Shown piece after piece: positions 1,406 through 56,251 of a DNA stretch of 64,000 nt. Source of the DNA: Eledone cirrhosa (Eukaryota). How positions within the stretch are numbered: position 1 is the stretch's first letter; each line of letters opens with the position of its first letter. The notes under the pieces are model-generated. The model did not search any database, was not told where the DNA came from, and saw only the letters and a list, made by a program, of their open reading frames with translations. The DNA is taken from assembly GCA_964016885.1 (NCBI GenBank), contig OZ024740.1:192758001-192822000 (forward strand), given 5' to 3'. The position numbers and the translations under genes are program-made.

Positions 1406-1599
1406 ATATATATATATATATATATATATGTGTATATATATATCTATATATATATATATATATATACATACAATAGGATTTCACTTCAAGCATAGCTTTA
1501 TATAAATTGTATAGAAATTTCGTATTTCCAAAGAGACACGGTTTTAGGAAGCCGTAGTTATGCAAACACCAGGGCTAACTCCGCCTGGTGGTATCCAGT

Positions 1600-1653
1600 G
1601 GGACAACCGTATATGCATTTCAGGCCTGACTGGCCTTCTTCAGTACGTTACCC
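1600..1653 (-). ncRNA. Minimal type-I hammerhead ribozyme
   Basis: CGUA-CUGAAGA-AGGCC agtca GGCCU-GAAA-UGC-AUA|UACG. Stem III is the palindrome AUGCAU. Confidence 0.85.
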
Positions 1654-1919
1654 ACACCGTTTGCGACTGGTGGACTTGAAAACAGTCGAGAATATATAGT
1701 TTGCTCGTCTGTGTAAATGAGGTGATTAACCTCATTTGCATAGGAATCTGCATATGTTGGCTCAATTTATAATAGAAAAGAAATAGGATTTCGCTTCCAG
1801 TATAACTTTATACAAATAAGTATAGAAATTTCGTATTTCTAAAGAAACACAGTTTAAGAAGCCGTAGCTATGCAAACACAGGGGCTAACACCCTCTGGTG
1901 GTGTCTATCAGAAGCAAGG

Positions 1920-1972
1920 GGGACAACCGTCTATGCATTTCAGGCTTGACTGGCCTTCTTCAGGACGTTCCC
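1920..1972 (-). ncRNA. Minimal type-I hammerhead ribozyme
   Basis: CGUC-CUGAAGA-stem II-GAAA-UGC-AUA|GACG. Stem I shows a compensatory change relative to the 1600 copy. Confidence 0.85.
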
Positions 1973-2345
1973 TCCAACCGCTTGCGTCTGCTGGGCTTGA
2001 AAACAGTCGAGAATATATAGTTTTCTCGTGTTTGTAAATGAGAATCTCATTTGCATATGAAGCTGCATAAGTTGGCTCCACTTATAATAGAAAAGAAATA
2101 GGATTTCGCTTCAAGCATAACGTTATACAAATATGTATAGCAATTTCGTATTTCTAAAGAAACACGGCTTTCAATACATATTTGTATAAAGCTGTGCTTG
2201 AAGCGAAGTCCTATTTCTTTTCTATTATAAGTTGAGCCAACTTATGCAGCTTTATATGCAAATGAGATTAATCGCCTCATTTACACAGACTAAAAAGCTA
2301 TATATTCTCGACTGTTTTCAAGTCCATCAGTCGCAATCGGTGGGA

Positions 2346-2397
2346 GGGACCGACCTGAAGAAGGCCCGACAAGCCTGAAATGTATAGACGGTTGTCC
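2346..2397 (+). ncRNA. Minimal type-I hammerhead ribozyme (inverted unit)
   Basis: CCGAC-CUGAAGA-AGGC...GCCU-GAAA-UGU-AUA|GACGG, with one stem I mismatch. Confidence 0.75.
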
Positions 2398-2565
2398 TCT
2401 TGATTCTGCTGCACAGCACCAGAGGGTGTTAGCCCAGGTGTTCGCATAGCTAAAGCTTCCTAACACCGTGTTTCTTTAGAAATACGAAATTTGTATACCC
2501 CCCCCCCCACATAAATATATATATATCACATAAGAAACGGAGAATCAGTAGTGCGAGGAATAAAA

Positions 2566-2785
2566 TGTATTAAACATATTACACTCGTTTCTCTGGCGAC
2601 CCGCTCGAGGCATGATCGATGCAATGATCGAACCCGACTCTGAAATCGCAAGGTCCTCTCATAGGTCTTGATTCTTCGAAGCAGAGTATCGCAAGGACCT
2701 TGCGATTTCAGAGTCAGGTTCGATCATTGCATCGATTGTGCCTCGAGCTGGTCGCCAGAGAAAGGATTGTAATATATCTAATAAA
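2566..2785. repeat. Fold-back inverted repeat (about 100-bp arms)
   Basis: CTCTGGCGACC...CGCAAGGTCCT pairs with AGGACCTTGCG...GGTCGCCAGAG around a spacer of about 27 bp. Confidence 0.85.
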
Positions 2786-2789
2786 TTGA

Positions 2790-5700
2790 TAGGTTTTTAG
2801 AGAAGTAATTTGGTTGGTTGGTGAATAATTATAATAAATTTCGCGCCAGTTCGCGTTACAAAGTTCTTATAATATTTGCCTTAAAAAAAGAGGGGTCTCA
2901 GGTTTTTTTTCATATATGAGTGAAGTTTGGTTGGTTGATGCAGTCGCGTGAATAATCACATTAGCTTTCGCACTAGTTTGTGTTTGAATTTCTTTTTACT
3001 TACAAAAAAGGTGGCTCACGAAGGCTTTTTTTTTATAAATGTAATTTGATTGGTTATAAATAACATTATGACTGTCACGTGAAAAAGTACATTAAATTCC
3101 ACGCCCGTATTTGGGAATTTATTTTGTAGCCTTTTTGAGAATTGTGTGCCAAACAAAAGATAATGGTCAAGAAAAACGGGATAGGGAGAATTGTTCTGGT
3201 TCAGTGAATATGGCTGGTGTGTCAAAATTCAGACTTTCATTGAAATAAAGAAAGTAGAGATATGTATGTTTATTTGTGTGCTGGTGTTTGTGTGTGTGTG
3301 TGTAGGAAGATGATTCTATTAGTAGAAATGGGGGAGGAAGATAGTGTGAGAGTGTGTGTGGGAGTATGGTTAGCATGTTAAGATGGAGAGAATACTTATA
3401 TTTTGTGTGTGTAGGAAAATGATTCCGTTAGTAGAAATGAGGGAGGGAGTTATGTGTGTGTGGGTGGGGGTGGGGGGGGGGGGGGGGGGGGTAGCATGTT
3501 AAGGTCTGAGAGTATTAACATATGTTAAGGTTTATATAGTTCTGATTTTTATTTTCTAAAATAGTAGGTGTTATGTGTGTGTGTATGTATGTGTCTGTTT
3601 GCATGGTTAGCATGTTATGGTGTTGACATAATGTATATTAAACTATAATTAATGCTGGTCTATATTTTTGAATAAACATATTTTCCTTATTTATTCATAT
3701 TTGTTCTGGTGTATTGTCAGCGCAAAGCTAAAATGGTAAGACTTGGAATGTGGGTGTCTTATTTATTGTGCATATGTCTAGATGTGCACTGTGGTATTTG
3801 CCTTGTGGTAGGATCTCGTAATTAAGGCGATGAACTGTCATTCTGTTTCTGAGTGTGAGCTTAGTTTGTCCTATATAATCTTCATTGCATCTTTTACATT
3901 TAATGGCATGAAGTAGATTTTTTGATGACAAGTGAAGTGATATTTTACAGCAAAATGTTGTCCTGGTTGAAATGTATACGTGTTGCCTTCAATGGGGTGA
4001 GTGCAGGTTCCACAAATAGAGCGACTACATTTTTTGACAGTTGGTTGTGGGTTGGTGGTAGGTAATTTGGCATTGGTGAGTAATGTTTTTAGTGATTTCG
4101 GTTGTCTTTTGCTTTTGATTATTTTGTGTGTTTCAAGGTTTTTTTTTCATTATTGGGTCTTGATTCAGTAGTGGGATGTTCTTGTGAATAGTGTTGTAAG
4201 CTTCCGCATTTCTTGGGTTGTGTGTTGAGATATGTGATACAATATTGGACGTACCTTGAATTTGTTTCTGTTCTCGTAATTCATCAATGCCTATTGCTTT
4301 ACTCCTTTCTATTCCATTATTTATTAGTAATCGTGGGTACTGTCATTCGAGTAGAATTTCCTTTAATTGTTGAAGTCTTTTATTTTGCGTTTCATAGTTG
4401 GAGACAATTGTGCAAATTCTTCTTGCCAGGTTAAAAGGGATGTTCGTCTTCGTGTGATTTGGGTGTTTGGAGGTGAATAGCATGTATTGTTTGGAATCGT
4501 TTGGTTTGTAGTGTATGTCAGTTTCAATATGTGTCTTTTTTTATGATTAAGATGTCCAGAAATGGGAGTTGAGCTTGGCTGTATTCCATTGGGAATTGAT
4601 GTGGTTATTGATGCCGTTAATTACATCATTTAGTTGGTTGAGTGTGTGAGACCGAAGAATTAGACAATCATCCAAGTAGCGTTTCCAATTCTCTGATAAA
4701 TATTTGGGGAAGTTCAATGCGTATTTTGATTTGGACTGTTCATATATCTGGACTTCCAAGTATGCCATGACTAAGTTGGCATACGTTGGAGCGACTTTTG
4801 TACCTATCGCAGTCCCCGATATTTGCTTGTAAGTACTGCCATCGAAATAAAAAATGTTGTTCTGTAAAATACAATATAATCCTTCGGTGATGAAGCTTTT
4901 TTCTATTCTGCCAGGTATCTCATTGGGATATTTCTCTAGCCAGAATCCTATTGCTTCTAGCCCGTATTGTTGTGGGATCTACATGGAAAGACACAATAAT
5001 AGTGTCGTTGTTGACATGGTTGTGGAGGTGGTATCAGAGGTCCAGATCATCCATTACAAGGCTTGGTATGTATATGAGAATTGGTTTTAGTAGTATGTCT
5101 ATAAAGTTGCTTAGTCTGTGTGTTTCACATTGTGGGCCCGCATACAATATGTCTTAATTTAAGCTATGTGGGGTATTGTGTCTTCACGCAGGTTGAGGTG
5201 GTTGTTTATAGGCATCGTTAATTATTTTACACTTGTGGATCTTCGGAAGTCCGTAAAGGTTGCTGGTGTTGTATTCAAAATGTGTTAAATAATCGCGTTC
5301 CTTTTTAGTTAAGTCTTCGTGGTATCGACAAATGAATGTGTTTAATCTGGTCATTGTTTTTGATTGATCGTAGTGTTTTACTCTTTCATATTAGTTAGTA
5401 TCTTGTAATAGAGAGAACATAGAATTGTTATATCGTTCAGCATCCATAATGACGACAGTACTTCCCTTGACCGCTTTTTTAATTATAATGTTAGTATTAG
5501 TTCATGGATAATCTCTCATTCCCTTTCGACTCGTGTTCGGTTTGGGTTTAGGTTGCGGTATGGGAAAGTTGTTATGTGGTCACAAAATGTTCCAGATCTC
5601 TTTTCCTACTCTTTGTTGGGTTGTAGCTACATTTATTCCGTACAATTGATTAGTTGTTATTCTCCTTGTCAAAAAATTCCTCTGTGAGACGTAATTTGTT

Positions 5701-13899: not shown

Positions 13900-13966
13900 T
13901 ACTTTATCTGATGAGGACGTACTGTTGAAGTTAATTCAGTACCTCTGAAATATGTATAATGAAATA
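13900..13966 (+). ncRNA. Minimal type-I hammerhead (inverted pLTR copy)
   Basis: Same motif as 10514-10580, with two stem I changes. Confidence 0.8.
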
Positions 13967-15899: not shown

Positions 15900-18800
15900 G
15901 GTTACTCGTGGCGAAAAACACACAAAAGGCCACGGCCACCCTGACCACCAGGGCAAGCGCCCTGTCTCAATTTTTCCATCTCTCAAACTACAGACGTATA
16001 TTCAGAGCGGTCCCGTTATCTCGGACCATCCTCGCTACATTCACCCACCTTTCAACAAACTTGCTAGAAGGCAGCACTTGCCTGTCCAGCCTGATTTACC
16101 TCTTCAACTGAAACTTGAAAAAGTTAATTAGGGATTCGCCGAAGAGGAAAGTGTCTGTCTTTAACCATTTCAACCTTGACCACTACACAACCTCTTCGCC
16201 ATGGCGACCAGGCAGGTGAAAACCGCCTGCCCTTTCTCCTCGAAGGAAGACGGCGAGATCATCTGCACAATGGACTCAGTCGATAACCGGATCAGTCCTA
16301 CACGCGATAGCAACTGTTCGACATAGCTCCACAAGTCAGCAATACTCGGGCACTGAACGAGTGCGTGCAAGACGGTTTCGTCGCTCTGCGCGCATCTCGG
16401 ACAGGCTCGGCTGATTGCACTTCCGTGCCTGTAAATCTTATCTCGAACCGGCAGCGCTCCCCGGTAGCACTGCCAACCCAGGGATTTTTGGAAGTTATCC
16501 ATAGGCACTGGGTTTGAAAGTTCTCCGGAAGAGAGCAAACAGCTGATCTTCTTCGACGCCCAGGATCTCTCCAATTACGTCGTCGCTCTCCCCCTCGACT
16601 AGTCCTCTGTAGAACGCTGAGGGGGATGTTTCACCGATACTAGTGCCCAGCTGGAGCAAAGGGCCGTGAGCGCCTGGAGACATTCCACTTTCCAAGCGCT
16701 ATCCCTCGGTATTTTTTTGACCCAGGACTGCAGCTCCGTCAAGGAGACGAGCTGTCGGAAAACTTGCCAATGAACGGCGACCACACCCGTTCACCGTCAA
16801 GGAAGCATGTTTGCGCATTATCATCCATGGCATGCCCAGTCCACCACGCAACGGGTGTTGACAGCAGATGGATCGTCTGACCATGGGAGCGCGTCCCTTC
16901 CACAAAAAGCGGAAGAGGAGGCGCTCCATTTTGGTGAGAGTTGAGCCGGGCAAGGGACGACGGTGAGGCGGCAGCAGATGACGGATGTGATGAACGCATT
17001 CGCCACCTCCGCCCGGCCTTTCAGAGACAGCTTCCTCTCGGCCCATTTCTGGGTGAGGGAGGCCACCCTGCTCGTCACCGCGTTCCAGTTTTTCTCCATC
17101 TGGAGGTCCGGTCCGAACCAGACCCCGAGCAATTTAATCGTTCCGTCCGTCTAACGCCCCACGACTCTGTCGGACGGCATGGACTTGCCTCTCCAGGTGC
17201 CGAGCTGCAAGCCCACCGACTTTTACTGGTTTATCTTTGCCGCTGTCACCGCTTCGTATTCCTTGAGAGCCGTGCCGAGCATCTGGACGTGTCTGCTGCT
17301 CGACAGCACCATATTGAAGTCGTCGGCGTATGTCGACTCGGATTTCCCGCATGCTAGTTAGCGTGGGACGCCCCTCATCGCCCCCAGTTTGTGCAGTAAC
17401 GGCTCGAGAGCCAACACGTACGAGAGGGGCGAGAGGGGACAACCCTGGCGGACTGAGCGCATGATGCTGAACGGCTGCGACAGGTAACCGTTTGCCCTCA
17501 CAACTGAGCAGATGTCGCTGTACATCGCTGCGATCCAACCCCTGAAAACGGGCCCGAAACCGGCTGCCTCGAGGACCAACGCCAGGTACCGATGGTCGAT
17601 TCTATCGAATGCTTTGGATTGATCCAACTTGATCAGGGCCCCACCCGTGCCAAGTTCCTTAACCACCCTCTCTATGATGTATCGCATGAGGTGGAGGTTG
17701 TCGTGTATGGATCTGTCCGGAATGGCGCATGTCTGCGCCTTTCCCAACAGACCCTTGACGATAAGCGCCAACCTCCTTGCTAACACCATGGCCATAATCT
17801 TGAACTCTGCGTTTAACAGAGTTATGGGCCTGAATTATCGATAACATCCCCCTTGTTCGGGTCTTTTCTCAGAACCGACACTGCTCCCCGGCTCACAAAA
17901 TTGCGAATGCACCCATTCTGCTGGCAGTTGCAATAGACGTCTGCATAAAGCTCGTAGGGCAGACCATCCAAACCTGGCGATTTACCCCTCGTGCACTTAG
18001 CCATCGCTTCCCGTATTTCACCGTCTGTTATTGACTTTTCGCAACACTGTGCTGCGGTCATCGAGAGCCAATGCAGTCCGTCGAGGTGTGCACGTCGAGG
18101 TGTCCATGCCCGATCCGAGCCGCCTCTGCTCTCGAACAGTTCAGCAAAGTGCTGCTGAAAAGCTTCACACATCCGCTCGGTTTCAAGCATCACGCACCCG
18201 TTTTGGTCAGACAAAGACCAAATTGTGGCTGTTTTGCCACGTCGCGCTTCTGCCACCCGGGCCCATTGGACGGCTTTTGTCCCCTCGTGTTTCAGAGCCC
18301 GCGCTCTTGCTCTGACAACGCAGCCTTCGTGTTTTGCGTTGAAGAATTGGTCGAGTACCAATCTCGCCGCAAGCACGTCGGTTGCGATGTCTGTCCTAAA
18401 CGCCTCTTCTAGCTTTCTAACTAGCTCTCCCTCTACTCTATTTTCCTCTATCACTACTCCTTTACTAAACCTAATCGACTCTACTTTAATTGCCCTTTTC
18501 AGGGCGAACCACCACCTGTTGATGACGACCGCTCCCGTCAACGCCCGCTTAACTAATACGCTAATTCGGTCTCTGTAGGCTTTGCGCGCCGGGAAAGACG
18601 CGTTCAGCTTCCAGTAACCAGGCCCTTGTCTATGAAGTCTGTCTATTTCGCTCTCACAGATCACAAATTCGTGGTGGTGTAGTCGATATTTTAAATTGTT
18701 GACAACTAAAACTAGCCTTATCTAGTTCTCTGCAGAATACTCTATCGAGATACGATCTGGATGACACGATGCGATTTGTCCATGTCCACATTGGCACATT

Positions 18801-19340
18801 CGGGTGATCCAGTCGATACCTGTCAGACAGTTCAAAACGTCTGAGTAGGTTTGTGAGGCTCTTGCACCGTCCTCCCCTATCCACTAGCCCCACACAATCC
18901 CAGCGTGCATCCACGATACCGTTCCAGTCGTCCACTAACACTAAAGAGCGGGACGTTCCAAGAAAGGTCTCTAGACGTCTGAAGAAATCTGGTCGTCCTG
19001 CCCCTGTTGGGGCGTAGGCGGCTACTCCCCTGAAAGCATTGTCTTCGCTGCCGGTCACGTCCAGCACCACCGACTTACCTTCTGGGTCTAGGAAGATGGC
19101 ATGTATGGCGAGAGCCACACCTCTCCGAAAAAGGACGGCAACCCCTCCCCCCGTTCCTGGACGGCTGGGAGATGCGTATACATCGTAGCCGCCGAAGATC
19201 GCTGCGAAGGCTTGTGCTTCGGAGATTCTGGTGTCACTGATGGCCACCACATCTATGTTTAGTTCGTTGAGCAGGTGACCCTGCTTCCAAGATGAGCCCA
19301 GGTCACGTGCATTTATACTTCCTTTTCTGAGTACGGCCAT
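15900..19340 (-). pseudogene. Tx1-like ORF2 (APE endonuclease, RT, zf-RVT)
   Basis: Motifs SINARDL, VAAYAP, YLDRVF, GPGYWKLN, KSPGLDGLP, LDQSKAFD, VRQGCPLSP, YADD (near 17320-17331) and CPRC...ETVLHALVQC, with many frameshifts. Confidence 0.92.
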
Positions 19341-19550
19341 GTTGGATGAGAAACGGAGCAAGTGAGAAAGGGTCACTTAGCTTGATCATGTGGTCAAGGG
19401 ACCGTAGAACCGTCCCTTTCGCTGTCATGGGTGTTTCCAAGAGGATGTCAGTGTATATCCTCTTGGTAACCGACCCGCTGAAATCTCCAACTGCGTTGGG
19501 GAATTTTTATTTTAAAGGTTTGTACTGTTCTATTGAGATTTCAATGATGC

Positions 19551-40329: not shown

Positions 40330-41072
40330 TGAGTTGAGATGGAGGGTCTGTGGTTTTTCTCACACCTGGTTGGTCTCTGAATGTTACTTGTTTTATATGG
40401 AAAAAGTTGCTCGAAATGCCAGGTTTTTCGAGAAGTAATTTGATTGGTTTGTCAATAATTATAATAAATATCGCGCCAGTTCGCGTTACAATAGTTCTTC
40501 AAATAAGAGGGGGGGGTTGTCACAGGTTGTTTTTTTTCATATATGAGTGTTTGAATTTCTTTTTACTTGAAAAAAGGGGCTCACGAAGGCTTTTTTGGGG
40601 TTGGTTATAAATGAAATTATGGCTGTCACGTGAACAAGTTTTCATTAAATTTTCGTGTCCTTATTTGGAAATCCATTCTGTAGCCTTTTTAGAGAATTTT
40701 GTGATAAGTGAAAGATAATGGTCAAGAGAAAGGGATGGGAGAATTGTTCTGGTTCAGTGAATATGGTTAGTTCGCTGTGGTGTCAGAATTCAGATTGTCT
40801 ATTGAATAAAGAAAGTAAAGATATGTATGTTTATTTGTGTGCTTCTGTGTGTGTGTGTGTGTTGTGTGTGTGTGTGTTTGAATTTCTTTACTTTAAAAAA
40901 AGGTGGCTCACGAAGGCTTTTTTTTAATAAACGTGATTTGATTGGTTATATAATGGGATTGGGAGAATTGTTCTGGTTCAGTGAATATGGTTAGTTCGCT
41001 GGGGTGTCGGAGTTCAGATTTTCTATTGAAGTAAAGATATGTATGTTTATTTGTGTGCTTGTGTGTGTGTGT

Positions 41073-41132
<60 letters not shown>

Positions 41133-41580: not shown

Positions 41581-44500
41581 TTAAACCTTATTTAATGTTG
41601 GTCTATATTTTTGAATAAACATATTTTCCTTATTTATTCGTATTTGTTCTGTTGTATTGTTAGCGCAAAGGTAAAATGGGAAGACTTGGAATTTGGGTGT
41701 CTTATTACTTGCGCAAATGTCTAGATGTGCACTTAGTGGTATCTGTCTCGTGGTTGGATCTCGTAATTGTTGGCGATGAACTGTCATTCTGTTTCTGAGC
41801 GTGAATTTAGTTTGTCCTATATAATATCCATTGCATCCTTTACATTTAATGGCATAAATTAGATTGTTTGATGAGCAAGTGAAGTGATTTTTTACAGTAA
41901 AATTTTGTCCTGATTTAAATGTATACGTGTTGCCTTCAATGAGATGAGTGCAGGTTCCACAATTAGAGCGACCACATTTTTTGATACTTGGTTGTGGGTT
42001 TGTGGTAGGTAATTTGGCATTGGTGAGTAATGTTTTCAGTGATTTTGGTTGTCCTTTGCTTTTGATTATTTTGTGTGTTTCAAGGGATTTTTTCATTCTT
42101 GGGTTTTGTTTTAGTCGTGGGATGTTCTTGTGAATAGTGTTGTACGCTTCCGCATTTCTTGGGTTTTGTGTTGAGATATATGATAGAATATTGGACGTAC
42201 CTTGAATTTGTTTTTGTTTCCGTAATTCATCAATGCCTATTGCTTTAGCCCTTTCTATTCCATTATTTATTAGTAATAGTGGGTACTCTCTCTCGAGTAG
42301 AATTTCCTTTAGTTCTTGAAGTCTTTTATTTCGCGTTTCATAATTGGAGACAATTGTGCAAATTCTTCTTGCTAGGTTAAAAGGAATGTTCGTCTTCGTG
42401 TGTTTTGGATGGTTGGAGGTGAATAGCAGATATTGTTTGGAATCTGTTGGTTTGTAGTGTATGTCAGTTTCGATATTGGTGTCTTTTTTTAAGATTAAGA
42501 TGTCCAGAAATGGGAGTTGATCTTGGCTGTATTCCATTGTGAATTGGATGAGGTTATTGATGCCGTTTATTAAGTTTTTGAAATCCTTCAGTTGGTCGAG
42601 TGTGTGGGACCAAAGAATGAGGCAATCTTCCAAGTAGCGTTTCCAATTCTCTGATAAATATTTGTGGAAGTTCAATCCTTATTTTGATTTGGACTGTTCA
42701 TATATCTGGACTTCTAAGTATGCCATGACTAAGTTGGCATAAGTTGGAGCGGCTTTTGTACCCATCGCAGTCCCCGATATGTGCTTGTAAGTATTGCCAT
42801 CGAAATCAAAAAAGTTGTTCTGTAAGATGAATTTTAATCCCTCGGTGATGAAGCTTTTTTCTATTCTGTCAGGTATCTCATTGGGATATTTCTCTAGCCA
42901 GAATCCTATTACTTCTAGTCCGTATTGGTGTGGGATCGTTGTGTAGAGATTCACTACATCGAAAGACACAATAATAGTGTCGTTGTTGACATGTTTGGGG
43001 AGGTGGTTTAAGAGGTCCAGATCGTCTCTTACAAGGCTTGGTATGTGTTTCAGTATTGGTTTCAGTAGTATGTCTATAAAGTTGCTCAGTCTGTATGTTT
43101 CAAATTGTGGGCCCGCTACAATTGGTCTTAATTTAAGGTCTGTGGGGTATTGTGTGTTCACGCAGGCTGAGGTGGATTGTTTCAGGCATCGTTGATTATT
43201 TTACACTTGTGGATCTTCGGAAGTCCGTAAAGGTTGCTGGTTTTGTATTCAAAATTTGTTAAATAATCGCGTTCCTTTTAGTTAGGTCTTCCTGGTATCG
43301 ATAAATCAGTGTGTTTAATTTGGTCATTATTTTTGATTGCTGGTAGTTTTTTACTCTTTCATAGTAATTAGTATTTTGTAAGAGAGAGAACATATAATTT
43401 TTATATTTTTCAGCCTCCATAATGACAACAGTACTTCCCTTGTCCGCTTCCTTAATTATAATGTCATGGTATGGGAAGGTAGCTATGTGGTCACAAAATT
43501 TGTCCAGAACTCTGTTTCTACCTTTTGTTGGGTTGTAGCTGCTTTTATTCCGTACAATTTATTCGTCGTTATTCTTCTTGTCAAAGAATTCCTCTGTGAG
43601 ACGTAATTTTCTACAGAAGTGTGAGATATCGTCATTTATCTCATTGGGATTAGAGTATTGTGGTGTTGGTGTGAATTTCAGTCCTTTGGAGAGAATTTTT
43701 ACTTGTTGGGCTGAGAGGTTCGTATTTGAAAGGTTAATTATTTTCGGTTTTTCAAAATCGGTTTGTGCCACCGGGTGTCGTGAGTCCTGTAGCCTTGGTC
43801 TAAAAAATGATTTTTCTTGAATGTTTTTTCAATGGTATTATTATATCTAATGGTATTTCCCCTGTGTTTGTGTGGTCTTGTATAGAAGTTTCGGACGTAT
43901 TGAGGTTCGGTTTGTTGATAGTCCGGGCTGTAGATTTTCTTCCTTTGTGTGGGTTGGGATCTACGGTTTTGGAACAGGCTCTGTGTGGGCAGGGGTCTAC
44001 GGTTTTGGAATAGGTTTTGTGTGGGTTGTGATCTGCGGATCAGGTCCTGCCTTGTGTTCGGGGATCTTTGGTATTTGTTAGTAGGGTTATAGTTTTGTCT
44101 ATGGTTTCTGGGATTATCGTTATAGTTTTGTTGGGGGTGTGTTGGACGTTTTGTTACTTTTTTTGTTATTTGTTGTGCATGTGGTGTGTGAGTTTTAGTT
44201 TGTTTTAAAAATGGGTTACCTGTATGTTGTTCCTTTTTGAAGTCCATTTCGTAGTTGTTGAACCAGGTGGAGTTTTTTCCCATCGCTGGGGGGATGTTAG
44301 TTCTTCATCCTCACAGTTTTCTTTCCAAAGTTTTAGGGTTTTCTTGTAGAGTAGGCCTTCAGAGTGCTTTGAGATTTCTGTGTCCATATGTTGGTCGAGT
44401 GACTTGAATTTTTCTTCGTTGGAGTTGGCTCTTAATCGCAACAGTTCTATTTCTGTTTTAAATTTTGCCAATGCCATCTTTTCCCTAAGTCTTTGTTGGT

Positions 44501-44940
44501 TTTCTGGTTCATTCGGGATGGGTTTTATTTGAAGTGTTTTGGGGAGGATGATTGGGGTAGAGTTTAGCCACTTTTCATATATGTCTGCCTTGCCATTATT
44601 TTTTAGGAGATTCCAAAGGGCGAATTTGCGGGCTGTGAGCTTTTGAGTCCATATGTTGATTAGGGTGTTTTTTCACTGAGTGGACATCTCGTATATTGGG
44701 TTCTAACGGTTGTTCCAGCTTTTGGAGCATTGCTGTTTCAATGGTTTCGATTAGCTTAGTTAATACTGGAGTAATATTCGTCTTTTGGGTATTTTCTGTT
44801 TCTTTGTGGAGTCCTTTTTTATAGATGTGTATTTGGTCCACTTTGTTGGTCAAAATTAAGAGTTTAGAGGAAATCTCTTTGAGTTCATTTAAGATGTCCT
44901 GGTTCAGTGAGTTGTTGTTTTGTTCAGACTTTGGTGGCAT
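41581..44940 (-). pseudogene. PLE polyprotein: long N-terminus, RT, CxxxxCxxC linker, GIY-YIG with CCHH; several frameshifts
   Basis: LSKGLKFTPTP, LRPIVAG, SFDVVNLYT, GTAMGT, WKRYLEDC, LPFLD, HYKPTD, CGRSNCGTC, LIYAIKCKGC.YYIGQT and HR...HL. Confidence 0.95.
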
Positions 44941-45106
44941 TTTCGGTCTTCGTGTGGTGGGTATATATTAGAAAGTGAGGTTTTTTTTACAAAATGAAAA
45001 ATAACCGAGGTGTCCTACACGAGTGAAAGTATAAAGAAAAAGAGATGAAATCGAAAATGCAACTGGAGTCTTATTTTTTTTTTTAAATATATATATTTAT
45101 TTGGTT

Positions 45107-45144
45107 CCTTTACAGGTTTCGCAGTTCTTCTGATTTTCAAAAGG
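45107..45144 (-). ncRNA. Minimal hammerhead, U3:A8 variant (5' pLTR)
   Basis: CCUU-UUGAAAA-uCAG...CUGC-GAAAC-CU-GUA|AAGG. Confidence 0.72.
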
Positions 45145-46024
45145 TGAGTTGAGATGGAGGGTCTGTGGTTTTTCTCACATCTGGTTGGTCTCTGAATGTT
45201 ACTTGTTTTATATGGAAAAAGTTGCTCGAAATGCCAGGTTTTTCGAGAAGTAATTTGATTGGTTTGTCAATAATTATAATAATTTCGCGCCAGTTCGCGT
45301 TACAATAGTTCTTCAAATAATCATTGTCATAACATTCTCTATGAAGGCTACAGAATAGATTTCCAAATAAGGGCGAAAAAATGTAAAGAAAACTTGTTCA
45401 CGTGACAGCCAAATTTCATTTCTAACCAATCAAATCACGTTTATTAAAAAAAAAAGCCTTCGTGAGCCACCTTTTTTTTAAGTAAAGAAATTCAAACACA
45501 CACACAAGCACACAAATAAACATACATATCTTTACTTTCTTTATTCAATAGAAAATCTGAATTCTGACACCCCAGCGAACTAACCATATTCACTGAACCA
45601 GAACAATTCTCCCATCCCTTTCTCTTGACCATTATCTTTCACTTATCACAAAATTCTCTAAAAAGGCTACAGAATGGATTTCCAAATAAGGACACGAAAA
45701 TTTAATGAAAACTTGTTCACATGACAGCCATAATTTCATTTATAACCAACCAAAAAAAAGCCTTCGTGAACCCCTTTTTTCAAGTAAAAAGAAATTCAAA
45801 CACTCATATATGAAAAAACAACCTGTGACAACCTCCCCCCCCCCCTCTTATTTGAAGAACTATTGTAACGCGAACTGGCGCGATATTTATTATAATTATT
45901 GACAAACCAATCAAATTACTTCTCGAAAAACCTTGCATTTCGAGCCACTTTTTCCATATAAAACAAGTAACATTCAGAGACCAACCAGATGTGAGAAAAA
46001 CCACAGACCCTCCATCTCAACTCA

Positions 46025-46062
46025 CCTTTTGAAAAGCAGAAGAACTGCGAAACCGGTAAAGA
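46025..46062 (+). ncRNA. Minimal hammerhead, U3:A8 variant (inverted pLTR)
   Basis: CCUU-UUGAAAA-GCAG aagaa CUGC-GAAAC-CG-GUA|AAG. Confidence 0.75.
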
Positions 46063-46194
46063 AACCAAATAAATATATATATATTTTTTTTTAAATAAGA
46101 CTCCAGTTGCATTTTCGATTTCATTTCTTTTTCTTTATACTTTCACTTGTGTAGGACTCCTCGGTTATTTTTCATTTTGTAAAAAAACCCTCAG

Positions 46195-46240
<46 letters not shown>

Positions 46241-51480: not shown

Positions 51481-54045
51481 CTAGCAGTTTAGCCCGGCGT
51501 TACTCGGGTTTGTTCATTTGCTATGAAAAGTTACATACAGGTAAACGTGGTTTGAAAGCGAATAAGCTTAACAATTAAGTGCATAAAGCAGTTGAACCGG
51601 CTATTAAAAGTTCCGAACCAATTAGCATTTTGGCCAATCAATGGGTTAATAATGATGGGTTAATAATCCTCCAATAGCGAATTTAGTAGACCAAAGTTGC
51701 AAGATGGTGGCCCTGATGCCGCTGGGTGTCAGATCTGTCCGTCATGGGATACCCTACCAGGAAATAGTGTTCCAGACGGCATAGCTCCAACACCTGCACC
51801 AACATCTATAGCACCTCTTTGTAGACAATATTGCGTGTCATCCCTTGAGGAGAGTAAGCAAAAAGTCCATTCCTGCTCCCTGCGCGGGAACAGGCAACAT
51901 AAAGTTGGCCATGGGAGAAGCATGGCTCCTCCAAATGGATGCCCGCCACCAACAATGTTTGCCCTTGTGACTTGTTAATGGACATGGCAAAACATGGTCT
52001 CACCGGGAATTGGGATCGTCGGAAATCGAACGGGATATCTGACGACGAGGGGAAAAGGTTCATCCTTGGAATAAAAACATTCTCTCCTCTTCCGCACCCC
52101 GTTACAATGGTGGCCTCAATCAAGTGGGTGTCAGTGACTTGACGACCATGCGAGTACCGTTGCACTGCTTTGGTGGACGCAAGTTCCTTATTGGCATAAT
52201 GGGACAGCCAACCCTAAGCTTAATAATGTGAGGTGGGAGCCCTGGGGGCTCAAGGAGATTTAATAACTCAACCGGATAATTAACGATATCGTCGGGGTCT
52301 GATTTGAAGATGTGCTCTTTACCGGGAATCTTCTCAATCAGCTGCTCGTTAATAAAATTAACCATGGTACTTTTCGGAGCAAGGATGGCTCTTTCGCTGA
52401 GCCAATCTAGGTTTTTAAAGTTAGATGAGACATTAGGAAAAACTGCTTCCCAAATGTCAGAAGGGCTGTTCACAATGTTGCACAGGGTTTCGATTGCTAT
52501 GCCGCCCTTGTCATCCGCAGGGATCTTGCCCTCACCAAGTGCTAAAATGTTCTGTGCTGCAGACATGTTATCACCATACAAATGAGCACGCATATTTGTG
52601 CTCAGGTACAAACTATTCACCTGGAGCCACAACATGGACGACTTAAGACAGGCACGCACTTCATCAGCTCTTGTCCATTTGGGGATGACAGGCAGCGTTT
52701 TCCGAAAATCCCCTGATAGCAGAAGGGTTACGCCACCATAGGAGCCGTAGAATCCCTAATGTCTTTCCGGGCCATGTCCAATGCCTCAAGGGCACCCTTG
52801 TGTGCCACTGTGCACTCATCCCAAACAATATGCAACATTTTTTGAGAACCAGAGCTTTGTGTGAACTCTTGCTGATATTGCATGTTGGTGTCTCAGTTTT
52901 TATTAAATCCAAAGGGAGTTTAAAGGTTGAATGTGCTGTCCTGCCTCCCGGCAGCAAAGTAGCAGCGATCCCGGACGATGCAACGGACAACGCAACTTTT
53001 TTCTCCTGACGAATCTTAGCGAGAATCAAATTCGTTACAAAAGTTTTTCCGGTACCCCGAGGAGCGTTTTTTATTGGGGGATCCAGGTTTTTTGTTTTTT
53101 TTTTACCTTGAGGTATAACCAGTCAGTAGTTCCTTCAAAGGCTCTGGCGGTTCCGGAAGAGGGGGCAAGGTGACGTTACCGTTTAAGCAGCACCTTGCAG
53201 GTGGCTCCCCAGCCCACTTTGTAGCATTGCAGAATTGGCAATTGAAGCGCATCTCGCCTATATTTATGTCAGAGCGCATCGAGTAATTAACGTTTTGCTC
53301 ATACTTGAAAGCTCGTAGGTGCCAGTAAGGGCTGTTGGGGCTCGTCACACCGCGTGCAGCTTCTCGCCGTCGACTGTTACGCTTGAACGTAGAACATTGG
53401 TCGTGTGGTTGGTGGGAAGGTCTGGCAGCAATAGCAGAAGCAACATTTGCAATGCTAATGGACCCCCGTCTGCATCTTCAGAAGCCATGGAAGTAGTCAT
53501 AGCCGCAGCGTCCGTAGGAAGGCGAGCCGTCCGTTGTTTTAAACGTTCCAAAGACCTGGAAGCAGCATTAGTCGCAGCGTTTCTAGCCAGGCGCTTCGAC
53601 CTATGTTCACGGCTCTCTGAAGCCCTGGAAGAAGCTTGGTATGAAGCCATTTTGGCTAAGCATGCGGTGCGCTGTTGGAAACTTTCAGCGGCTCGACATT
53701 CTGCTTAACGTAAGGCTGTCTGTGAAAGTCTTGAAGCATTTTCCTCAGAGGACTCGTTTGCTATAGTAGCCTCTTGCGCCACTGCTGACCCGGTATGTCG
53801 ACTGAGGCGACTTCTCTTTTTAGGTGGCATTTTATGTGCAAAAGAAAAGGTGAAAAATTACTTCTACAGAAAAATTGACTTTGAAAGTCTACTGTCTCTT
53901 TATGAATATTGTTATAGTTGTTGTGATACAAATGTTAGTAAGTAAATGGGTATCGAAAAATAAATTGTGAAAGTTACTTCAACATAAAAATTGACTTTGA
54001 AAGTATAAGGCTGATAATTGAATGTAAAAAGATTGATAAAAAAGC

Positions 54046-55285: not shown

Positions 55286-56251
55286 ATAAAAACAAATAAC
55301 GAAACGAAATTAAATTTCGTTTCGTTTGTAACTCACTTTTGTATGACTGACGCTTAAACAATTAAGTTAGAAGTGTACATCCACATATGTATATTGAAAT
55401 ACTAGTATGCATATAAATACACACACGTATACATATGTAGATGTACCGAGTTTTTCACTGGACACTTTACTGTGAGTGTTCAGCTAGTCTGTATGTAAAC
55501 ACACAGACAAACCGGTGTTTAGAGTCATACTGGTTTTCGAGGAAACACCTTTCCAATATTCCTGTCTGGCCCTCTGGAGAATAGAGGAAAGGTGTTTCCT
55601 CGAAAACCAGTATGACTCTAAAAACCGGTTTGTCTGTGTGTTTACATACAGACTAGCTGAACACTCACAGTAAAGTGTCCAGTGAAAAACTCGGTACATC
55701 TACATATGTATACGTGTGTGTATTTATATGCATACTAGTATTTCAGTATACATATGTGGATGTACACTTCTAACTTAATTGTTTAAGCGTCAGTCATACA
55801 AAAGTGAGTTACAAACGAAACGAAATTTAATTTCGTTTCGTTATTTGTTTTTATCGCCTCCGCTGAACCGGTACGTACTCACGCTCTATGCAAATTAGTC
55901 TGCCCACTACTAATTTTCATAGAAAAAGCATATAACGATATGTGCTTTTACGATTCTCTAGAGGGGCCGGAGGATGGGTAAATATTGCTGATGAGATGTA
56001 ACAACATCGAAACTAGTCCAATATTCCTGTCTGGCCCTCTGGAGAATAGAGGAAAGGTGTTTCCTCGAAAACCAGTATGACTCTAAAAACCGGTTTGTCT
56101 GTGTGTTTACATACAGACTAGCTGAACACTCACAGTAAAGTGTCCAGTGAAAAACTCGGTACATCTACATATGTATACGTGTGTGTATTTATATGCATAC
56201 TAGTATTTCAGTATACATATGTGGATGTACACTTCTAACTTAATTGTTTAA
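55286..56251 (+). mobile_element. Non-coding HHR element (retrozyme-like): inverted head + 465-bp unit + partial second unit
   Basis: 55554-55786 is repeated at 56019-56251. 55286-55553 is an inverted copy of about 55586-55854. Confidence 0.9.
55981..56025 (+). ncRNA. Canonical minimal type-I hammerhead ribozyme
   Basis: AAUAUUG-CUGAUGA-GAUGU aaca ACAUC-GAAAC-UA-GUC|CAAUAUU. All stems pair perfectly; predicted cleavage after 56018. Confidence 0.93.

Follow-up and report, generated by a model that had tools for sequence, protein, structure and literature searches.

A candidate U6-type promoter ahead of the hammerhead ribozyme in several retrozyme families of Eledone cirrhosa

The systems closest to the one described here are a small and varied group. 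Newt satellite 2 carries an snRNA-type Pol II promoter that is internal to its hammerhead repeat (PMC2220036, PMC6765202), and the hammerhead repeats of schistosomes are built as a Pol III promoter followed by a hammerhead (Ferbeyre 1998, via PMC6765202). In the schistosome arrangement cleavage leaves the promoter at the 3' terminus of the RNA, and tandem copies are therefore needed. The newt promoter, studied by Coats, Zhang and Epstein in 1994, reportedly combines an octamer with a PSE and starts transcription about 47 nt before the cut, and the promoter of the schistosome repeats, which Ferbeyre described in 1998, is said to be an internal one of the tRNA type. As for retrozymes, it has been stated that they seem to harbour no promoters (in the available part of a 2020 review, PMC7761336), and the part at hand of a recent preprint, which ties animal retrozymes to Penelope-like elements, makes no use of the terms promoter, octamer or TATA (bioRxiv 10.64898/2026.07.22.740005). 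The non-LTR retrozymes of Cervera and de la Pena (2020, PMC7229834) are short tandem units with one type I hammerhead per unit, with strongly self-paired predicted circles and with Penelope-like elements in the same genome, all of which holds for the repeats described below; they measure 170-400 nt, whereas two of our families have units of 430-500 nt, and no promoter is named for them in the accessible text. The corresponding part of PMC13282606 mentions neither ribozyme nor retrozyme. A preliminary description of this DNA knew of no such promoter in retrozymes; in view of the newt (Pol II) and schistosome (Pol III) repeats that was wrong in general, but no U6-type promoter in a hammerhead repeat was found in the literature searched, which lay largely outside the subscription journals.

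The DNA analysed, which we call the window, is a stretch of 64,000 nucleotides (positions 192,758,001-192,822,000 of its contig), and all genome-wide counts refer to the 3.0 Gb assembly. It contains insertions of two repeat families, A and B. The family A insertion, with a TA microsatellite adjoining its left end, has three modules, two of them on the minus strand; family A has 2279 first-look candidates genome-wide, of which 40 were scored, and its copies are about 90% like the window copy, while family B has 2070 such candidates, again with 40 scored, and its copies are 97-100% like that of the window. The features are as follows.

Family A, 1472..2498, no single strand: the whole insertion, about 2.2 tandem units of 315-320 nt (minus) and one plus-strand unit, with a head-to-head junction near 2165.
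Family A, 1612..1742, minus: third module and hammerhead; octamer 1741-1734, core from 1643.
Family A, 1932..2057, minus: second module and hammerhead; octamer 2056-2049, core from 1963, hairpin loop shortened.
Family A, 2218..2221, plus: T4 run in the tail of the unit preceding the plus-strand module, 38 nt before the octamer.
Family A, 2255..2266, plus: proximal element TATGCAAATGAG, with the octamer at 2256-2263; the same 12 nt stand before host U6 (locus L046) and RNase MRP (L112).
Family A, 2276..2286, plus: degenerate inverted half, a predicted RNA hairpin arm pairing with the element; absent from host promoters.
Family A, 2292..2298, plus: AAAAAGC, private to the window copy.
Family A, 2299..2306, plus: TATA box, 43 nt past the octamer start.
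Family A, 2329, plus: predicted start, TATA + 30, with the distance taken from five host genes.
Family A, 2340..2400, plus: type I hammerhead with a short palindromic stem III; core 2355-2380, predicted cut after 2386.
Family B, 55286..56251, no single strand: the whole insertion, an inverted arm (55286-55561), then 1.5 units of 465 nt.
Family B, 55814..55852, plus: tail hairpin (55814-55842) and T5 (55848-55852), 40 nt before the octamer.
Family B, 55887..55898, plus: proximal element TATGCAAATTAG, with the octamer at 55888-55895; the same as the element before host U6 (L047).
Family B, 55910..55920, plus: degenerate inverted half, a predicted hairpin arm.
Family B, 55923..55948, plus: TATA-like box, with TATAA at 55931 (+43) within a palindrome whose left arm is AAAAAGC.
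Family B, 55960..55961, plus: predicted start, at the foot of an extended helix I.
Family B, 55970..56040, plus: type I hammerhead; core 55988-56012, predicted cut after 56018.

The positions first reported for these copies are all correct, with ATGCAAAT at 2256-2263, AAAAAGC at 2292-2298 (+36), TATATA at 2299 and the core at 2355 (+99) in family A, and with ATGCAAAT at 55888-55895, AAAAAGC at 55923-55929 (+35) and the core at 55988 (+100) in family B. The plus-strand hammerhead of family A in the window has private changes at 2353 and 2383, and the 465-nt units of family B begin at the hammerhead cut (55552 corresponds to 56017).

Units measure 315-320 nt in family A, 461-469 nt in B and 430-502 nt in a third family, C, and they occur as anything from dimers to arrays of more than 20 (such arrays of family B are seen at L260, G000:C1:5.735-5.752 Mb, and at L259). 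Among distinct copies (24 from A, 13 from B and 13 from C), the pairing of helices I-III and the core is kept in most, and double changes are seen in the first two helices; the family B hammerhead is found by the Rfam model Hammerhead_HH9 at 31.8 bits (E 7.7e-06), which is under the gathering score, that of family A matches no Rfam hammerhead, and at the gathering score Rfam finds nothing in the 64-kb window. In a further family, D, the hammerhead was assigned by eye from the sequence. A 441-aa open frame that spans a family C array contains no Pfam domain (72 of the 181 long frames were scanned). With a hammerhead in each unit and short tandem repeats, the elements agree with non-LTR retrozymes in those sequence criteria that could be tested. 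Other very common families contribute type I hammerheads to the window at 13908 (+), 10572 (-), 60424 (+) and 14480 (-), all lacking the module, and the density of hammerheads genome-wide is about 55 per 950 kb.

What the families truly have in common is TATGCAAAT(G/T/C)AG, followed by a TATA box (+40 to +45) and by the core of a type I hammerhead (+88 to +100). Indeed, the order and spacing of octamer, TATA and hammerhead, on which the preliminary description had staked its proposal, are kept within and between families, the pattern having 31,421 matches genome-wide as against 9 for the reversed pattern, in a count that takes in tandem arrays and overlapping matches and whose events are not independent; a second pattern gave 30,388 matches, among which short and host-like spacings are not separable, TATATA matching in two registers. 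At least five repeat families, A to E, are present among the first 100 matches listed, and a diverged relative of the first, A2, was found additionally. From octamer to TATA the distance is 43 nt in A and in B, 42 nt in C, mostly 45 nt in D and 40 nt in E, with a TATA-like box in every family. AAAAAGC, which had been taken for a shared part, has to be dropped: it is present in 1/25 A, 65/67 B, 0/41 C, 0/5 D and 0/1 E copies (two unassigned matches excluded), the remaining family A copies read like GAGAAAAC in its place, and the independent run X1 has other letters at the three positions that create it (97%, 94% and 97% of the contig depth), so that in family A it is a chance feature of the window copy. 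Nor is the module general to hammerheads, since among 55 hammerheads in random DNA (95 stretches chosen by position, 950 kb) it accompanies five, the other 50 scoring at most 7.5 bits; shuffles gave 0-3 hammerheads. Two side observations belong here. Family D (L071, L114-L116) has two extra octamer-like copies in steps of about 27 nt upstream of its main element, and an octamer-like element also occurs in three other repeat families (L292, L296, L323, L124; L297, L305, L306; L316, L321), in some cases with TATA at a shorter distance; none of the three has a hammerhead where the module would place one.

The element has close counterparts in the host's own small-RNA genes. It lies at -76, -77 and -78 before U6 (three loci), at -77 before U6atac and at -77 before RNase MRP, and a TATA box lies at -30 in all five. 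For U6, where 26 of 48 listed copies were examined, element and TATA stand before two single genes and the C19 array (in one variant of which the element is displaced to -269), and the element is absent from 14 of 14 dispersed copies; for U6atac a variant of the element is found in the best-scoring of eight examined copies and in none of the other seven, and the one RNase MRP gene examined has both element and TATA. In the C19 array, every 1.8-kb unit also contains a second copy of element plus TATA that is not followed by U6 (L049, about 150-215 and 1980-2040), and many of the dispersed U6 and U6atac copies without promoter elements, often next to TA repeats, are likely retrocopies (L104-L111, L167-L180). 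The octamer had been introduced as a site of snRNA and histone promoters, and this is borne out by U6, U6atac and MRP only: no element is seen in 12 distinct U1 and 7 distinct U2 upstream regions (best 2.3 bits), and the exact octamer occurs in 0/37 host histone upstream regions, which gives no support to a histone-type octamer-TATA origin of the module. The U1 and U2 regions have motifs of their own that differ from the module, AATTA near -90 and TCAG near -57, together with a TATA-like box near -30 (L088-L103, L153-L166), in contrast to the TATA-less U1 and U2 genes of vertebrates. A TATA box is consequently no mark of Pol III in this animal.

How good is the match? A matrix built from the five host elements scores seven retrozyme representatives at 16.2-20.4 bits, with the host elements themselves at 11.8-18.7 bits on leave-one-out, and finds 1-5 equally good background sites in 718,992 positions. 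Resemblance by chance in AT-rich DNA might seem an easy explanation, given that the window shows no excess of the octamer by itself (7 matches where 5.6 are expected), that AAAAAGC in family A has indeed proved fortuitous and that sites of at least 13 bits are only mildly enriched in random DNA (34, versus 14-32 in shuffles). Sites of retrozyme grade, however, arise at 1e-6 to 7e-6 per position, or about 1e-4 to 7e-4 per 100 nt with the families counted as one event, and we regard coincidence as barely credible.

The resemblance to the host type 3 promoters (U6, U6atac, RNase MRP) extends to the same 12-nt element, its orientation and the TATA downstream of it; it does not extend to the spacing, which is 46-48 nt in the host and 40-45 nt in the retrozymes, that is, 1-8 nt shorter, in a comparison that spans U6, U6atac and MRP. 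A host gene with a spacing of 42-43 nt may exist, the survey having covered U6, U6atac, MRP, U1, U2 and histone genes. The module differs further in having an inverted half-copy and in lying inside a transcribed repeat, and it has no distal element: a motif like TTACCTCCCTT at a fixed position of about -260 before U1, U2 and U6 (L046-L057, L088-L103, L155-L160) is a candidate for such an element, and it is absent from the retrozyme units and was not seen before U6atac either. Because spacing and distal element both fail, we do not file the module as a standard type 3 promoter. We also note that the host variants of the element include ATGCTAAT and ATGGAAAT and occupy the position of a proximal element, so the sequence may be what SNAPc binds at the Pol III genes of this animal rather than a plain Oct site.

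Conservation among the retrozyme families bears on whether the module still does anything. Between A and A2 (one pair), 42/43 positions are identical from octamer to TATA, compared with 21/32 in the hammerhead, 71/109 in the body and 15/26 just upstream; between B and C (again one pair) the figures are 11/11 in the element and 62/100 in the body. By sequence comparison, then, the module is the best-conserved part between subfamilies. Alignment above shuffles is obtained in 10/10 family pairs for the promoter segment, partly by construction because the families were found by that very segment, and in 1/10 for the leader, which runs from TATA to core. On family A the contig depth is highest over 2230-2289, with 112,000-212,000 versus 1,000-68,000 elsewhere, and this fits a module common to subfamilies with different hammerheads, although likeness to the window copy also affects depth; such contig data are silent on start, strand and expression, and the fact that runs X4 and X6 gave nothing on family A is no proof of absence. 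In the contigs of run X1 the listed variants of at least 10% (24 sites) all lie outside the family B module, which is weak evidence (about P 0.07, reckoned by hand). One might of course suppose that a U6-type promoter was captured by an ancestor and has since been merely inherited, inactive, and it would suit such a relic that the spacing has drifted, that the distal element is missing and that some families are kin: B is related to C in both body and tail (z 6.7, in part through TA-rich sequence), and the tail hairpins of A and B are weakly similar (z 4.3), which made the earlier label of unrelated families too strong, even if it was right that there is little likeness beyond the module. Given this kinship, a single ancient capture with later divergence and a number of separate captures are equally likely. 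A module conserved far above its flanks and also above the hammerhead itself, with an element that can be aligned between families whose leaders mostly cannot, is nevertheless hard to reconcile with loss of function, and we consider a dead relic most improbable.

Taken together, the sequence comparisons suggest that the module is probably a promoter for one polymerase or the other, with all readings that do without a promoter being unlikely even in combination. Since signals of U6, U6atac and MRP genes stand just before the hammerhead, these retrozymes are likely to carry their own promoter along when they are copied. The internal promoter that the preliminary description had placed just upstream of the hammerhead is in this sense partly supported, element and TATA matching those of host Pol III snRNA-type genes, shorn of AAAAAGC, which is no part of the shared module, and of the hairpin, which host promoters lack. 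Our preferred reading is that the module is an internal U6-type (Pol III type 3) promoter, used by Pol III in several hammerhead retrozyme families, and we would give it a probability of roughly 0.45. In its favour, the element is found only before Pol III genes among the host upstream regions examined (U6, U6atac, MRP, U1, U2, histone), and each unit is closed by a hairpin and a T-run about 40-58 nt before the next element. Against Pol III in its plain form stand, besides the spacing and the missing distal element, runs of T5-T7 in the path of the polymerase. Before the next cut, each of 21 family B units has a minimum of one T5 and two T4 runs, and T6-T7 runs occur in 5/8 family C units; with human termination values we estimate that 2-6% of transcripts would read through in A and no more than 0.4% in B and C. 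Bodies free of T4 are not significant against chance (P 0.11-0.43 per family, 0.56-0.94 for one A unit), and the first run of T4 or more is often the tail run, yet in 26/67 B copies there is already a T4 or T5 at +344 to +346. A tRNA-type promoter, as reported for the schistosome repeats, is not supported as the origin of the module, neither A nor B box being found in any of 31 units (0/31, strict patterns), nor any tRNA (ARAGORN 0).

The most serious competitor keeps the promoter and changes the enzyme. The same two elements, at their shortened spacing, could recruit Pol II as in newt satellite 2 (PMC2220036, PMC6765202), with multimers cut into monomers by the hammerheads and the T-runs simply ignored; we think this a real possibility, with the odds nonetheless against it. 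The spacing in A, B and C is 3-5 nt under that of host Pol III genes, which is like the shift between Pol II and Pol III genes in the fly (for comparison, fly PSEB at 30-37, TATA at 34-41), and in insects the distance from element to TATA is tightly kept and 4 nt shorter in Pol II genes. The T5-T7 runs persist in young, successful families, and human type 3 promoters are able to recruit Pol II (PMC6023835). What weakens the case for Pol II is that in the host the element is seen only before Pol III genes, that the proximal elements of the host's own snRNA-type Pol II genes, the U1 and U2 motifs near -90 and -57, are different and are missing from the module, and that in three families the copy ends of one class gather at the tail T-run. 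In its element and in its TATA box the module also departs from the Pol II promoter of newt satellite 2, matching the host's Pol III snRNA-type genes and not U1 or U2.

The hairpin had been named as another shared part, and here the outcome is mixed, for it is predicted in A, B and C, where it is weak when taken alone (z -1.6 to -2.9; -0.4 in A2), and is absent in D and E and in host promoters. It is one among many hairpins of these units, whose predicted circular folds are hairpin chains with 57-69% of positions paired and with element and TATA each in a stem, and on this modelling we read it as a feature of the RNA fold rather than of the promoter; it may alternatively be a second, inverted binding site. 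One might go further and see in the octamer and TATA hairpins nothing but RNA, binding a Penelope-like protein or aiding the folding of circles, while transcription comes from read-through from outside, which is the mode held for retrozymes in the accessible part of the 2020 review (PMC7761336). The element does pair with its inverted half in the predicted circles (P 0.7-1.0 at most positions), the TATA does sit in a second hairpin, the units fold well (z -4.1 to -8.4) and there is one compensating change between A and B. Such a role leaves unexplained why 12 nt should be identical to host Pol III promoters and stand in the proper order relative to TATA, why D and E retain the element although they have no hairpin, and why 50 of 55 hammerheads in random DNA manage without the module, and we judge it improbable.

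Copy ends carry information about how these units move. In family B the 3' ends fall into two classes, at +355-364 (23/53) and +431-433 (27/53), as they do in family C, at +389-393 (9/39) and +437-447 (13/39), and in family A, at +236-256 (13/34) and +275-292 (17/34); in all three they are mostly joined to TA repeats, and the outer class coincides with the tail T-run (B 27/53, C 13/39, A 17/34). The 27 outer ends of family B lie 2-4 nt past the tail T5, one class of family A ends falls around the T4 run at 2218..2221, and inverted family B insertions usually have one 3' end of each class; relative to the cut, 8/53 family B 5' ends lie at +129 to +156, a figure biased by the choice of loci. Ends at the T-run may stem from start sites of the reverse transcriptase and from TA microhomology, not from RNA ends. 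Penelope-like elements have two reverse-transcription start sites and a tail (PMC11167929), which the two classes of 3' ends resemble, and further points of likeness are AT-rich targets, tandem and inverted copies and a hammerhead with a short palindromic stem III (PMC11167929, PMC2377424). Unlike them, our units appear to have no ORF. Two fixed 3' ends, inverted arms and an AT-rich target, all found here, are features of non-autonomous Penelope-like elements. The Drosophila Penelope promoter is described as TATA-less and LINE-like (PMC2377424).

Penelope-like elements are plentiful in this genome, and an autonomous partner was sought in 50 loci out of 10,596 GIY-YIG candidates. None of 30 short loci examined has the element, 2 of 20 longer stretches have a 12-mer, which is not tied to a pLTR hammerhead, and no sequence shared with a partner's pLTR was seen in these 50 loci, a small part of the candidates. 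One autonomous Penelope-like family (five loci: L240, L264, L265, L268, L277) has a hammerhead about 400 nt past its ORF and a TATA-like box about 80 nt before that hammerhead, and has no octamer element. With the element missing from this family and no pLTR link in the 50 loci, an autonomous Penelope origin of the module is unsupported. The window itself contains a broken Penelope-like element at 41584-44940 (-), with an RT-like region, a C-terminal GIY-YIG region (PF01541, E 2.6e-07) and several stops; a long palindrome (about 44960-46200) with a hammerhead-like motif, core CAGAAGA and no octamer module, precedes it, and a repeat akin to its ends adjoins the family A insertion (2760-3400; also 40700-41100 and 45300-45900). 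Fragments of a PIF1 helicase (Helitron-like, 52123-52755, -) and of an endonuclease (LINE-like, 18657-19376, -) are present as well.

If the module is used by Pol III, as we prefer to think, the life of a unit might run as follows. With the host distance applied, each of the seven representatives would have its start (TATA + 30) 16-27 nt ahead of the core, where helix I has its foot; Pol III starting there would make the ribozyme whole, and the hammerhead would then cut off a leader of about 47-58 nt, which is close to the 47 nt or so reportedly separating start and cut in the newt. Most transcripts would end at the tail T-run, and a minority would read through the promoter of the next unit as far as the next hammerhead, whose cut would free a monomer holding the promoter near its 3' end, much as the promoter is left at the 3' end of the cut RNA in the schistosome SINE-like repeats. 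The monomer would likely be circularised and then reverse-transcribed by a Penelope-like RT from two start sites, rebuilding the arrangement of promoter before hammerhead in tandem DNA, and a promoter that normally lies outside its gene would thus be inherited through RNA. Ordinary SINEs cannot keep a type 3 promoter because it lies outside the transcript, and it is tempting, if tentative, to suppose that the tandem array and the hammerhead together let a U6-type promoter ride in the RNA circle, folded into hairpins, and so opened to these repeats a promoter class unavailable to SINEs.

A promoter ahead of a repeat's hammerhead was, as we have seen, already known; what appears to be new is a U6-type version tied to host genes and common to several abundant families. 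It offers a concrete and mutable promoter candidate, linked to U6-class genes of the host, present in thousands of copies and provided with a predicted start site, and it would also serve as a candidate core U6 promoter for this animal, with practical use in small-RNA expression. The finding bears on the question of how animal retrozymes reach high levels of transcription, and a prediction that follows from it is that, from one species to the next, the promoters of retrozymes will keep step with the snRNA promoters of their hosts. If our preferred reading is true, the pairing of a hammerhead with tandem copies may be the trick that explains the high transcription of animal retrozymes, each of them matching the snRNA promoters of its own host.
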